A stretch of DNA of 64,000 bases from a phage, in the NCBI GenBank assembly GCA_024614665.1, contig GCA_024614665.1_4861.1; one strand, 5' to 3'. Position 1 is the first letter of the stretch; the number at the start of each line of letters is the position of its first letter. Position numbers and translations under genes: made by a program. The notes under the pieces are model-generated. The model was not told the origin of the DNA. It ran no database searches and saw only the letters and a list, made by a program, of their open reading frames with translations. Below are positions 18,498-22,840 of this stretch, piece by piece.

Positions 18498-20603
18498 TTA
18501 CAACTCAATTACCACAGCGGCTCCTAGGTCATCGTACAACGATGCCGGGATTTTGTACTCGGTATAAAAACCAACGCGATCGATATTCCCCTGCTGTCCT
18601 TCAAACAACAACATCGGAATTGCCGAGCGCAAACTAATGAGCGTGTTGTGATCGACAAACCGTTTCCCGGTGGCATTAGTAGAATCCTCACTGTCAAATC
18701 CTACTGCCGGGAACGGGTTGGTTGGTGACTCTACACGAGATATCGCCAACATAATCGCAATATGCGTCATCGGTATACCACTCAGCTTACGCTGGATATA
18801 CTTAAACGTGTCCATCAATGCATAAGTACACTGTTTCTCTGTAGCACCACCCATTTCAACCAACGTTACCGGTTTCACACGACCTTGTTTCTTGTTCAGC
18901 TTCACAGTCGAGGCTGTGTTGATGATTTCCACAATGTCTTCGTTCTTATCGGCAGCAATCGAACGGAGCTTGGTTTCTAAGCCGGCTACGAACTCTGCCA
19001 TCGATTCAGAACGGTTGGTGTAGACCAGGACCGGGTGTTTCGGGTTCCATCCTTTTAAGGGGATTTCTACCGTCTTCTTCTCGATACGAATGTTCGCTCG
19101 TTGTTTCAAGAAGTAGTGCAGGAACGGTTTAGAGAAGTTCCCACAAACACCCATTCGCACATCGATAGAATCCGCAGCGATTATCTGCCCATCTTCTAAA
19201 CGACGTTGGAAAGTTAAGTCGGTGATTTCTGGTAATGCCGTTTCATCAATTGCATCGAGATCTTCATGATACGCAATCTGGCTCAGCTCCGAATAAACTT
19301 TGTCGGTAACAACCAACTCGTATTCTGACCAATTCCCACGCTGTGGTTTTGGCAGCAAGCACAACCCTTTCAGAGAGTTATGTTTGTATTCGGTCATATA
19401 CTCACGCATACGTGGGGTGAGTACCAGGTTGAGCAGATAACGCAAGAAGTCAAGGTGCTTGGTAGAGAGAATTCCCTGTGTACCCTTTTCCGAGATGGAC
19501 GTGGATGCCAGGTGACCTGGTGACGTACCTTCAGAGAGGTTATAAATCAAATCCCCCATACAGGTCGCACAGATGGACTGATTCGCCATCTCTTTACAGG
19601 TCATGGCACTACGGAAGACCAGCGGTTTACCAACCAGGTCAGCGTATCCACCTTTCTCAAATCGCAACCACGGACCGTTATCGCCCTCTAAACGATAACG
19701 CATTCCCACCATCGCTTTATAGGCACGCTCATCCAGCTGCGTATCCTTAAACGTGTAGCGGTGTGCGTGTGTTGTACCGCAGTCGTCGTACGTGAAATAC
19801 ATCAGTACGTTTGCTGCCAGCTGCAGTTTACGTGAGGCGTATTCTGCTTCGGCAATCTTGTCAGTGTTGTACAAGTGGGAACGTGAAGTTGCACCGGATT
19901 CTTTCAAACGCGAAATAACCGAATGCATCCCGGTAAAGAAGCCTTCCCACACCTGATTGGTGTATACGCGCGAGTCAATTTCTGACGTTTTACCACGCAC
20001 GAAGGCTTGCAGTACCTGGTTCATCTTCACGGTACCGTCCAGTACCGACATTACGACTGGGTTATACCGCAGCGCAGGGTCTTTGAAGATTTTCTCGATA
20101 AGCTTATACGCTTCTTCAACCATATCCTGACCATCTTCATCGTAGCCAGTAGGATACTGCACTTCCCACTGACGGATGAGTTCGAAGTTCGGGTGGTCGT
20201 AGATCTCCATCATCGTATCAAAGTCGATTGTCGTACAATAGGACAGCAAGTTCTTCACTGTCATGTTGAACGCATCGGCGTAGACATGTTGACTCAGGAT
20301 ATAACGCGTTTCAGCAAGGTCGACACCTGCTTTACGGGCCAGTACCGCTGCTTCCGACATAAAGTCCAGATGCAGGTCATCTGTTGCTACCTGACCTGGA
20401 CGATACGCCATGGTCGATGGAGTGGGCACCTGCGGATACAGACGCGACACACCCCAATACGGCCAGCTGAGTTTGATGTGGCGACTAGACATTTCCAACG
20501 ACTTACCATCGTCGAAAGTCACGTAATAACGCCCGCGTAGTTTCCACACCTGATCAGAGTTAAGCATACGCAAATCACGTACGTGTACAGAACGACCCGC
20601 CAT
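18498..20603 (-). CDS. RNA polymerase beta-prime-like subunit, C-terminal part
   Basis: YDDCGT and CATC...SEKGTQGILSTKH resembling E. coli RpoC DDCGT and GEPGTQLTMRTFH trigger-loop region. Confidence 0.75.
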   Translation of the reverse strand: MAGRSVHVRDLRMLNSDQVWKLRGRYYVTFDDGKSLEMSSRHIKLSWPYWGVSRLYPQVPTPSTMAYRPGQVATDDLHLDFMSEAAVLARKAGVDLAETRYILSQHVYADAFNMTVKNLLSYCTTIDFDTMMEIYDHPNFELIRQWEVQYPTGYDEDGQDMVEEAYKLIEKIFKDPALRYNPVVMSVLDGTVKMNQVLQAFVRGKTSEIDSRVYTNQVWEGFFTGMHSVISRLKESGATSRSHLYNTDKIAEAEYASRKLQLAANVLMYFTYDDCGTTHAHRYTFKDTQLDERAYKAMVGMRYRLEGDNGPWLRFEKGGYADLVGKPLVFRSAMTCKEMANQSICATCMGDLIYNLSEGTSPGHLASTSISEKGTQGILSTKHLDFLRYLLNLVLTPRMREYMTEYKHNSLKGLCLLPKPQRGNWSEYELVVTDKVYSELSQIAYHEDLDAIDETALPEITDLTFQRRLEDGQIIAADSIDVRMGVCGNFSKPFLHYFLKQRANIRIEKKTVEIPLKGWNPKHPVLVYTNRSESMAEFVAGLETKLRSIAADKNEDIVEIINTASTVKLNKKQGRVKPVTLVEMGGATEKQCTYALMDTFKYIQRKLSGIPMTHIAIMLAISRVESPTNPFPAVGFDSEDSTNATGKRFVDHNTLISLRSAIPMLLFEGQQGNIDRVGFYTEYKIPASLYDDLGAAVVIEL

Positions 20604-22840
20604 TATTTATCCTCCCGAATTGGACGCACTAATTCAAAACCTTCACAGCGATGGATGTTGCGTATCATCCTGTCAATCTGCGAATCACCCATTGGTAGTT
20701 TCTTACGATCGACCAGCACCCCTGGATTGGTTGGTGTTGGCGAGTTATACAGCCCCGTTACGATCGCACGGTGTACCGCAGGGTTATTAGCGCGGTCATG
20801 AGTTTCGGGGAAGTTGCCCGGACCAAAGCCGTCGGTAAGACGCTGCTCGGAAGGACCACCCCACTTCAACCCTTTCAGGTTAATCGGATATGAACCACGT
20901 CCTTGGTTGGATGCATCAATACAACCCAAATAGTTCGTGTACATCGACGAGATACTGGAGAACTCACGACCGGTTTTATCCAGGCGCAGAGTCTCTACCA
21001 TGCCGACGTAGAACTGGTTCTTCGTCCACTCTTTCTCACCCTGATAGTTAGTAATCAGTAGCTTAGACTTGCGTGGTGCATACTCGCCTAGAGCACGGCA
21101 GATTTCTACCTGGGTAGCATTCAATTCGTGGGGAAGCCAGATACGAATCGTGAAGTCGTAAATCTCTTTAAAGAGTTCCAGACGTGACCCAGTATCCGGG
21201 TGACTGGCATTGAGATAGAATGTCCAGCGTGGGTTATAGCGATCGATATAGTCCATCAGGATTTCCCAGGCTTCATCAACCTGGTTGGCGGCAAGTAAAG
21301 GTTTCAACCGCATCTTCAACTGCTCGGATGCAGCAGACCAATACATGTGGAACAGCGCAGCATAAGTCGAACGACGAATTACGGCGTTCATGGAACGAAT
21401 GACATGCACACGTTCTCCGAACTCGTTAATCGGCATTTCTTCATCAGGCCGCACTGCACCCACGATACCTTTTGTACCTGAACGGTCGGTGATTTTCGAT
21501 GAGACGGTAACTGGGATTGGATAACGTACCACGATGCGTATCGTGTAACTACCGATTGGGTCCCAGAGACCACGCTGAACCGGCTGCGCCAGTTTGTTTA
21601 ACACGTTCTTATCAGCAGAACGGTTATACTCGCCTTTGCGCATGGCTTCATCGTATTCACGACCAATCTCTTCACGGAAGTCGTTATAGACTTCATACGT
21701 CTCAGAACAGAACGCCTTGTCAAGAATCTCAAACGCTTTCGGTGACCAGACAATGTTCTTGTCTTTGGACATCGCAAAATAGAACCGTACGATATCATTG
21801 TAAAAACGTTTCAAAGCGTTCGCGTAGTGATCTAACTCGCGTTTGTTCTCTTCGGTACATGCGATATTGTTAACACCACGATCGCATTTGGTTTCGTCCC
21901 GCCATACCTGAATATCAACGACACGTGAACCGGTACGTTCCATCTTTTCAAAGTCGCCAGCCAGTCGCGCTTTGTAATGCTCAGGGTCAGCATCAACATA
22001 CTCACAACGGTCGAAGTGCGGAGAGACATGTTGTGTTTCACCTACGTGCGAGTCAATGGCTGCCCATAGCTTATCGAAACGGCGCGCGGCAATAACCAAC
22101 CCATCATCACGAATTGCCTGTCCTTTATTGGGCAGGTACTGTGGTCGACGAACGCCATCAATACCCGTTGTCCCATACGTGTCAAGCAGGTACTCGTCGT
22201 CACGCAAGGTAAAGTCAATTGCACGTAAACCATAAGCGTGCATCGCTTTCGCTGCAGTTTCGGAGATGGTGTACGAGTCCTCGATAATGTCCGGGTGCGA
22301 CATTGTCACAGTGTGCAGATTGACCCCATCGACAAACTCACCGTCTTTCTGTGCCGGCAGTACGGTAAGCATTTCATCTTTTTCCAGGTGCTGCGTCTGC
22401 CCGCGCAGCAACGCCTGAAGTTTCCCAGTAGCCTCTTTCTTAGACGAGAAAATGTTATCGTGGTTGGTGTAATACTTAATATCGATTACATCAATCATCA
22501 CTTTGCGCTGGTTGGTTAAATCTGCGCGCGTGAAGAAGATAACATGCTGGAGCGGTTCGTGATCCCCTTCACGACCATAGCGTGCAAAAACAGCTGCACG
22601 AGTAACACCTTCTTTGGTTGTGTAACTGCACACAGTACCACTATCTTCCACGATATCGTTAAAACAATAATCGTGGTAGTTCACATCAGCGCCGGTAAAA
22701 TGGATAGTCGGGTCTGGATTGTCCAGTGGTACCGCCGACTTCATATGTCCACCCACCATTGAGGCACGTGCCCCAGATACGCCAGTGATATTCACCTCAC
22801 GGTCAGCAACGCTTGACATGAGTTCGACTGGTGTTTTCAT
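20603..22840 (-). CDS. RNA polymerase beta-like subunit, C-terminal part
   Basis: DRSGTKGIVGAV...EEMP resembling RpoB RHGNKGVISKI..EDMP; IIEDSYTISE resembling NFEDSILVSE; C-terminal GG...DGFG region. Confidence 0.75.
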   Translation of the reverse strand: MKTPVELMSSVADREVNITGVSGARASMVGGHMKSAVPLDNPDPTIHFTGADVNYHDYCFNDIVEDSGTVCSYTTKEGVTRAAVFARYGREGDHEPLQHVIFFTRADLTNQRKVMIDVIDIKYYTNHDNIFSSKKEATGKLQALLRGQTQHLEKDEMLTVLPAQKDGEFVDGVNLHTVTMSHPDIIEDSYTISETAAKAMHAYGLRAIDFTLRDDEYLLDTYGTTGIDGVRRPQYLPNKGQAIRDDGLVIAARRFDKLWAAIDSHVGETQHVSPHFDRCEYVDADPEHYKARLAGDFEKMERTGSRVVDIQVWRDETKCDRGVNNIACTEENKRELDHYANALKRFYNDIVRFYFAMSKDKNIVWSPKAFEILDKAFCSETYEVYNDFREEIGREYDEAMRKGEYNRSADKNVLNKLAQPVQRGLWDPIGSYTIRIVVRYPIPVTVSSKITDRSGTKGIVGAVRPDEEMPINEFGERVHVIRSMNAVIRRSTYAALFHMYWSAASEQLKMRLKPLLAANQVDEAWEILMDYIDRYNPRWTFYLNASHPDTGSRLELFKEIYDFTIRIWLPHELNATQVEICRALGEYAPRKSKLLITNYQGEKEWTKNQFYVGMVETLRLDKTGREFSSISSMYTNYLGCIDASNQGRGSYPINLKGLKWGGPSEQRLTDGFGPGNFPETHDRANNPAVHRAIVTGLYNSPTPTNPGVLVDRKKLPMGDSQIDRMIRNIHRCEGFELVRPIREDK

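Follow-up and report, generated by a model that had tools for sequence, protein, structure and literature searches.

An overlapping gene pair in an SPN3US-like jumbo phage very probably encodes the C-terminal halves of the non-virion RNA polymerase beta and beta-prime subunits

A 64,000-nt stretch of phage DNA (GenBank assembly GCA_024614665.1, contig GCA_024614665.1_4861.1), referred to below as the window and used for the numbering of all positions, was analyzed around two tandem genes on its minus strand. A first-pass annotation, made from the sequence letters, had read these genes as split subunits of a multisubunit RNA polymerase. The analysis indicates with high confidence that they encode the C-terminal half of the beta subunit (beta-C, 745 amino acids) and the C-terminal half of the beta-prime subunit (beta-prime-C, 701 amino acids) of the non-virion RNA polymerase (nvRNAP) of an SPN3US-like, phiKZ-related jumbo phage. 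Both open reading frames (ORFs) were found on the minus strand exactly where the annotation had placed them (Table 1), back to back and with one base in common. Over its whole 4.3 kb the pair region is 98.4% identical in DNA sequence to positions 29014-33356 of Salmonella phage SPN3US, and its identity to about 30 further genomes of Seoulvirus is 97-99%. The window is therefore part of the genome of an SPN3US-like Salmonella jumbo phage. The SPN3US counterparts, SPN3US_0034 and SPN3US_0035, are annotated as putative RNA polymerase beta subunit 2 and beta-prime subunit, and the identity of the pair is already known from this GenBank record and from literature of 2011-2016 including Thomas et al. 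2016.

The 745-aa protein matched phrog_3295 of the PHROGs collection over residues 1-745 (E=3.6e-268) and the Pfam domain Rpb2_6 (Rpb2 domain 6, PF00562) over residues 430-507 (24.3 bits, cut-off 23.4, E=2e-5). Searched against the PDB as a single sequence, it retrieved the phiKZ gp71-73 chain 7OGP_C (2.4e-29) and the nvRNAP of Bacillus phage AR9 (1.9e-8). A family profile built from six genera (alignment A1) strengthened these matches to 1.7e-39 and 2.7e-14, respectively, and reached bacterial beta subunits at about 0.01 on the GxKG...EDMP segment, which aligns to positions ~1060-1109 of the 1342 residues of Escherichia coli beta. The match to 7OGP_C falls into two stretches, residues ~21-347 and 437-728. 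The protein contains the strings ITDRSGTKGIVGAVRPDEEMP and HPDIIEDSYTISE as well as the RpoB-like segments DRSGTKGIVGAV...EEMP and IIEDSYTISE that the annotation had pointed out. The IIEDSY and GTKGIVG...EEMP segments are invariant in A1, as are E187, D188 and G455-G461. Homology to the gp71-73 chain thus extends over approximately the full length and includes the active-site segments (the ED loop and GxKG...(E/D)(E/D)MP), representing the C-terminal half of beta only. Judged from its sequence, the 745-aa protein is the orthologue of phiKZ gp71-73.

The 701-aa protein matched phrog_3015 (E=5.8e-241, 802 bits) and, as a single sequence, the phiKZ gp74 chain 7OGP_D (8.8e-39). With family profiles the latter match improved to 5.3e-46 (6 sequences) and 9.1e-111 (29 sequences, positions 6-689). 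The depth of the profile was decisive for the more distant relationships. While the 6-sequence profile searched against cellular beta-prime found nothing but phiKZ gp74, the 29-sequence profile detected the AR9 nvRNAP (1.5e-17) and bacterial beta-prime from Clostridioides difficile (8.4e-13), Thermus (~1e-9) and E. coli (8.6e-8). The alignment covers positions 715-937 of E. coli beta-prime with the bridge helix, the DCGT/CxxC zinc site and the GTQ..H trigger loop. In it, the family sequence AEYgSRKlQL is placed on the bridge helix, DCGT and CxxC on the zinc-site cysteines, and EKG(T/S)QGILSTKH on EPGTQLTMRTFH of the trigger loop. The strings FTYDDCGTT and SEKGTQGILSTKHLD are present in the protein, and the RpoC-like YDDCGT and GTQ...TKH signatures of the annotation were located there, the latter as GTQGILSTKH. 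Ten residues (D274, C275, C336, C345, C348, Q376, L379, S380, K382 and H383) are invariant in 29/29 homologues down to 20% identity, and the protein carries a bridge helix, a Cys4 zinc site (C275, C336, C345, C348) and a trigger loop (Q376...H383). An AlphaFold model (predicted local distance difference test score 76.6) was compared with solved structures by Foldseek. It matched chain D of phiKZ nvRNAP (8QUE_D, 6e-30), chain D of the AR9 enzyme (7S01_D, 9e-16) and Thermus and E. coli beta-prime (~1e-9), each with a Foldseek probability of 1.00, and the predicted structure has a beta-prime-like fold. By full-length homology to gp74 and phrog_3015, by the bridge helix, Cys4 zinc site and catalytic-histidine trigger loop that can be aligned to cellular beta-prime, and by its modelled fold, the 701-aa protein is the orthologue of phiKZ gp74. 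Profile, solved-structure and fold searches hence all agree with the earlier reading of beta C-terminal-like and beta-prime C-terminal-like halves. Both proteins fall into the split beta and beta-prime families of phiKZ-like jumbo phages, as had been proposed, and the lack of significant similarity to RNA polymerase families that had been named as a refutation did not occur.

Phages of this type encode two polymerases, and genes of both are located within the window. The first-pass annotation can be refined at this point, as the pair belongs specifically to the non-virion enzyme and the virion set is a separate paralogous family. In phiKZ, gp71-73 have been described as the C-terminal half of beta and gp55 and gp74 as beta-prime, and the enzyme purified together with gp123 and gp68 consists of five subunits, is rifampicin-resistant, uses late promoters and has no homologues of alpha or omega. 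For SPN3US, proteomics found gp241, gp218, gp240, gp42 and gp244 in virions as the virion RNA polymerase (vRNAP), while gp35 was named the nvRNAP beta-prime subunit and gp77 the nvRNAP beta N-fragment (Thomas et al. 2016). It could be argued that the pair instead encodes subunits of the vRNAP, which is packaged, injected with the DNA and transcribes early genes, since both sets are split beta/beta-prime homologues and the GenBank labels ('beta subunit 1/2/3') do not tell them apart. However, among solved structures both proteins match nvRNAP chains best, namely those of phiKZ and AR9. A gp42-like vRNAP beta-prime fragment is also encoded in the window (Table 1). This protein belongs to phrog_2962, on which the 701-aa protein scores 28 bits compared to 802 bits on phrog_3015, and the two proteins are barely alignable (E=0.01 over the DCGT...CxxC stretch). 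The virion assignment is accordingly considered very improbable, and membership of the pair in the virion set was ruled out by PHROG assignment, by comparison with the paralogue and by the published proteomics. The nvRNAP chain matches, the literature and the placement of the gp42-like paralogue in another PHROG together lead to the assignment of the pair to nvRNAP, and its products would be expected to be absent from virions, for which the SPN3US proteomics and nomenclature and the early-type motif in front of the pair are indirect evidence.

The very low similarity to cellular beta and beta-prime and the one-base overlap, which could hint at a single frameshifted gene, might alternatively suggest decaying, inactive relics or one gene mis-split by a sequencing error. 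The chance of this is minute and the idea is already refuted by conservation. In dozens of phages belonging to several genera, both ORFs are intact and keep their length to within 0-13 residues, mean column identity is 77-79% and the catalytic residues are invariant. Moreover, one protein is a homologue of cellular beta and the other of cellular beta-prime, and hence they are not one split gene, and in the solved phiKZ enzyme the orthologues form separate chains.

Several observations count against the assignment of the pair to a functional nvRNAP. The Pfam match for beta, obtained with a single sequence, lies only just over its cut-off, and the single 701-aa sequence misses the gathering threshold of RNA_pol_Rpb1_5 (17.0 vs 28.5 bits, E=0.0043), although the beta-prime relationship was recovered by profile and fold. 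Foldseek TM-scores (template modelling scores) for the 701-aa model were low (0.2-0.3), owing to the extended shape of the subunit and its modelling as a lone chain. In this particular phage the pair is known from sequence alone, and the roles of its products are assigned by homology with SPN3US and phiKZ. Finally, phiKZ nvRNAP did not use middle promoters in vitro (PMC7598289), and the gene classes served by nvRNAP are not fully settled even in phiKZ.

Table 1. Positions of the gene pair, its candidate regulatory elements and related features in the window
Feature	Positions	Strand	Details
beta-C gene (SPN3US gp34 orthologue; phiKZ gp71-73 family)	20603..22840	minus	745 aa, ATG start
beta-prime-C gene (SPN3US gp35 orthologue; phiKZ gp74 family)	18498..20603	minus	701 aa, ATG start
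Candidate early-class (vRNAP) promoter motif	22871..22885	minus	AGATAGATATTATCT in gene orientation; 31 nt before beta-C ATG
Shine-Dalgarno sequence AAGGAG of beta-C gene	22850..22855	minus	read from sequence; conserved in relatives
Gene junction	20601..20616	minus	Shine-Dalgarno GGGAGG 20616-20611, then TAATG (TAA 20605-20603, ATG 20603-20601)
Intrinsic-terminator-like element	18469..18494 (runs 18494-18469)	minus	GAGGGGC-CTTGC-GCCCCTC + T7, -14.6 kcal/mol
Helicase Shine-Dalgarno-like GAGGGGC + ATG (gp36-like gene 16745-18451)	18449..18461	minus	GAGGGGC is an exact copy of the terminator 5' arm
gp42-like vRNAP beta-prime fragment (virion-set paralogue, not nvRNAP)	11193..12491	minus	phrog_2962, E=4e-175
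nvRNAP beta-prime N-half (SPN3US gp23 / phiKZ gp55 orthologue)	32946..34897	minus	intron-split
Parts of beta-prime N-half gene	exon 1 34897-33530, intron 33529-33174, exon 2 33173-32946	minus	356-nt group I intron
Motif copy	36880..36894	minus	47 nt upstream of gp22-like gene heading beta-prime N-half operon

The sequence surrounding the two genes has the architecture of a compact transcription unit (Table 1). The Shine-Dalgarno sequence AAGGAG starts 15 nt past the upstream motif AGATAGATATTATCT and is followed by the beta-C ATG at 22840. At the 3' end, an intrinsic-terminator-like element begins 4 nt after the beta-prime-C stop codon (TAA at 18500-18498). The minus strand of the window has just one other perfect hairpin with a T-run. 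The elements of the unit were compared in SPAsTU, the Erwinia phages Stratton, ChrisDB and Machina, Cronobacter phage CR5 and approximately 18 further IMG/VR loci, which share 56-100% protein identity. The upstream core in these relatives reads (G/T)ATAT(T/G)TATC(T/C), a stop/start overlap (TAATG, TGATG or ATGA) is kept in all relatives with at least 56% identity, and the terminator stem is unchanged while its loop occurs with 12 different sequences. The TAATG overlap suggests translational coupling of two subunits that would be needed in equal amounts. A scan of positions 15.5-24.8 kb for sigma-70-type promoters gave 10 sites compared to 12.5 expected, and none of them accounts for the unit.

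The motif in front of the pair was followed further, as it recurs in the window. In its plus-strand form, AGATAATATCTATCT, it yields 9 matches with up to 3 mismatches compared to 1.2 expected, a number reached by 0/100 shuffled sequences. The plus-strand 15-mer was located at positions 22871, 26614, 28030, 36880, 36973, 45198 and 48165. All copies in the window have one orientation (plus strand as printed) and lie 31-62 nt upstream of minus-strand gene starts, with the exceptions of 36973 and the intragenic 26614. The claim that the motif at 22871 lies directly upstream of the pair therefore holds for its position, 31 nt before the ATG, and needs correction for its orientation, as it had been printed on the opposite strand. 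At loci with only 24% protein identity, ACATACATTATCA is found at the same place upstream of the orthologous gene. In the whole SPN3US genome, the coding strand has 24 matches and the opposite strand 6, compared to approximately 7 expected in total. Strong copies precede gp5, gp9, gp22, gp30, gp34, gp55, gp66, gp76 and gp99 and further gp101, gp112, gp125, gp135, gp175, gp180, gp209, gp221 and gp249. The motif heads all three nvRNAP operons of SPN3US, gp22-gp23 (beta-prime N-half), gp34-gp35 and gp76-gp77 (beta N-half), while the SPN3US census found no copy before virion RNA polymerase, major capsid, sheath or terminase genes. Likewise, no copy was found upstream of the gp42-like gene in the window. 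Genome-wide in SPN3US, the motif occurs in two flavours, ...GATATTATCT-NN-GTGA and AGATATATATTACCTAGGTGAGA.

These features resemble early promoters of jumbo phages. A review (PMC7598289) describes nvRNAP genes as early, early genes as being transcribed by the injected vRNAP, and an AT-rich motif of ~10 nt centred near -10 of the early promoters in each such phage. In a later review, chmA and the nvRNAP genes are given as the first genes that vRNAP transcribes. The motif studied here is likewise AT-rich, recurrent and present in one orientation, with a length of about 10-15 nt. As it heads all three nvRNAP operons and no virion RNA polymerase or structural gene, and as nvRNAP genes are early and carry such motifs according to the reviews, AGATAGATATTATCT is probably the early promoter of SPN3US-type phages. 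A literature search found no transcript map for this phage group, and what speaks against the promoter assignment is that it is drawn from position, orientation, recurrence and analogy. In addition, the core of the motif, AGATA-N-TATCT, is an almost perfect 11-nt palindrome and as such fits the binding site of a dimeric regulator. Function as an operator, bound by a dimeric regulator of phage or host origin, or another role apart from a promoter, would also be compatible with the perfect intragenic copy at 26614 and with two SPN3US sites between divergent genes that score on both strands (15614/15618 and 191602/191606). This explanation is unlikely, given the strong strand bias (24 vs 6), the constant orientation towards the downstream gene and the fixed distance to a conserved GTGA followed by the Shine-Dalgarno sequence and ATG. 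An AT-rich element of ~10-15 nt is also what has been described for the early promoters of every RNA polymerase-encoding jumbo phage, and the nvRNAP genes that the motif fronts are early in phiKZ and AR9. The early promoter thus remains the preferred interpretation. For the site at 22871, service to the divergent plus-strand gene at 22907 was considered and is disfavoured. The minus-strand reading is preferable because the remaining copies share one orientation and precede minus-strand genes, and this site may be used bidirectionally. The intragenic copy (26614-26628, perfect) lies inside the gene at 26361-27968, 266 nt upstream of the next gene start, and may be an internal promoter.

The terminator-like element overlaps in its potential pairing with the start of the downstream helicase gene, whose Shine-Dalgarno-like sequence repeats the terminator 5' arm (Table 1). 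For the RNA from the beta-prime-C stop codon to the helicase AUG (positions 18449-18494), two alternative folds were predicted. In nascent RNA, the hairpin GAGGGGC/GCCCCUC would form (-14.6 kcal/mol). In read-through RNA, the 3' arm together with the U-run is predicted to pair with GAAGAGGGGCAGC, which spans the helicase Shine-Dalgarno sequence and AUG, at -26.4 kcal/mol (range -20 to -28), and the preference for this second fold is the same in five other phages. It is conceivable, though doubtful, that the terminator doubles as an RNA switch for the helicase gene. The helicase would then not be translated from read-through transcripts unless the terminator hairpin stayed in place or the structure was opened by a ribosome or a helicase. 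The need of one arm to pair with two partners would account for a stem that is invariant down to 56% beta-prime C-half identity (CR5 beta-C: 56%) beside a loop with 12 sequences. In 24 loci the arms and the downstream copy are essentially invariant, with only C-to-U (G-U-compatible) changes and a few mismatches, and thus offer no covariation by which the alternative pairing could be judged. The other perfect hairpin of the window (13384-13405, minus strand, CGGGGC-TTCG-GCCCCG plus T-run) follows a gp40-like gene and has the same GGGGC/GCCCC stem theme, and no complementary copy was found downstream of it.

The combined observations allow a working model for the unit. The pair would constitute a self-contained early transcription unit, whose motif 31 nt upstream is presumably read by the injected vRNAP. 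Coupling of the cistrons through TAATG would favour equimolar synthesis of the two proteins, and the hairpin with its T-run would close the unit. By homology with the purified and structurally solved phiKZ enzyme, beta-C and beta-prime-C are expected to assemble with three further subunits, which would be the beta-prime N-half encoded at 32946-34897 in the window, the beta N-half (gp77 homologue) and a fifth, sigma-like subunit. The genes for the latter two lie outside the window. In the assembled enzyme, beta-C would provide the hybrid-binding and double-psi beta-barrel (DPBB) elements (ED and GxKG...EDMP) and beta-prime-C the bridge helix, the Cys4 zinc site and the trigger loop. This nvRNAP is predicted to be rifampicin-resistant, to lack alpha and omega and to transcribe late and probably middle phage genes without the host enzyme.

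The third nvRNAP gene of the window, encoding the beta-prime N-half, is interrupted by a group I intron (Table 1). Compared to SPN3US, the window contains a 363-nt insertion inside the gp23 orthologue, and the full Rfam model RF00028 (positions 1-253) was matched with 65.5 bits (gathering threshold 50, E=2.2e-14). Exon 1 ends with ...AAC GGU at 33530 and the intron with a G at 33174, which gives predicted splice junctions of the form GGU/...G/GAU, the slashes marking the cuts. The score, a 5' splice site after U, the terminal G and the restored ORF all agree with a group I intron. Predicted splicing yields a protein that reads MANG/DFDGDQ across the junction, matches SPN3US gp23 at 531/532 positions and retrieves phiKZ gp55 (7OGP_A) with E=5e-39. 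The intron lacks an ORF and is positioned immediately before the codons for the catalytic DFDGD, the universal Mg-binding motif. It is 96-97% identical in six Seoulvirus genomes, 79% identical in SaP7 and Proteus phage 7 and absent from SPN3US, and three synonymous differences from SPN3US are found in the 9 nt upstream of the insertion site. Introns in RNA polymerase genes of this phage family are already known (Thomas et al. 2016; later review). The polymorphic intron at the DFDGD codons is likely a marker of intron homing and of competition among co-infecting Seoulvirus phages.

A gp22-like gene for a 617-aa protein (34980-36833, minus strand), headed by the motif at 36880, immediately precedes the beta-prime N-half gene. 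Its location mirrors that of chmA (gp54) beside gp55 in phiKZ. A nuclear-shell identity was suspected from this position, but the protein had no PDB sequence match and matched only a PHROG of unknown function, and it is left unassigned. Relative to SPN3US, the window also has an insertion of 391 nt (31902-32292), located between genes resembling gp24 and gp25. The 141-aa ORF that it carries (31880-32305, minus strand) matched neither Pfam nor PHROGs entries and may be a small mobile or moron gene. Three tRNA genes were detected by Rfam on the minus strand at 49532-49603 (30.6 bits), 49606-49675 (38.1 bits) and 50761-50833 (65.6 bits), and only two tRNAs are annotated in the corresponding SPN3US region. 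The SPFM phage records LR535901, LR535905-08 and LR535912-13 matched window positions 18400-23300 in 40 short pieces that cover approximately 50% of the query at 99% identity. The predicted proteins in these records are fragmented, and the piecemeal matches suggest assemblies rich in insertions and deletions rather than real biological differences.

The pair contributes to the catalytic core of the enzyme by which nucleus-forming jumbo phages of the phiKZ type dispense with the host polymerase for transcription, and this independence underlies their rifampicin-insensitive infection. What the present analysis adds to the known identity of the genes is an explicit account of the architecture of the unit (an early-type motif, coupled cistrons and a terminator) and of how it is conserved between genera, a genome-wide list of candidate early promoters for SPN3US-type phages, and the record of the polymorphic group I intron in another nvRNAP gene of this isolate.

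Among known systems, the closest is the gp34/gp35 pair of the Seoulvirus SPN3US, which is alike in gene lengths, overlap, upstream motif and terminator and differs within the pair by point substitutions only. Elsewhere, the phage studied here deviates from SPN3US by the intron in its beta-prime N-half gene and by the 391-nt insertion. The phiKZ genes gp71-73/gp74 (PDB 7OGP, 7OGR, 8QUE, 9RJS) encode full-length homologues with the same catalytic motifs, are adjacent in the order beta-C then beta-prime-C, and are likewise part of an enzyme in which beta and beta-prime are each split into N and C halves, yet identity is only ~20-25%. While phiKZ beta-C is annotated as gp71 and gp73 around the gp72 endonuclease, beta-C is uninterrupted here and the interrupted nvRNAP gene is that of the beta-prime N-half. 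The nvRNAP of Bacillus phage AR9 (PDB 7S00, 7S01, 7UM0) has the same split-subunit architecture, as recognized with the family profiles (2.7e-14 and 1.5e-17) and from the predicted fold (9e-16), and is much more distant. AR9 differs in its uracil-containing genome and its template-strand promoter recognition, and the AR9 lineage has been described as not encoding a pseudo-nucleus (PMC7598289). Bacterial RpoB shares ED and GxKG..EDMP with beta-C, and bacterial RpoC shares the bridge helix, the DCGT/CxxC zinc site and the GTQ..H trigger loop with beta-prime-C. In contrast to these cellular subunits, with which sequence identity is ~12-15%, each subunit is split here into two polypeptides.

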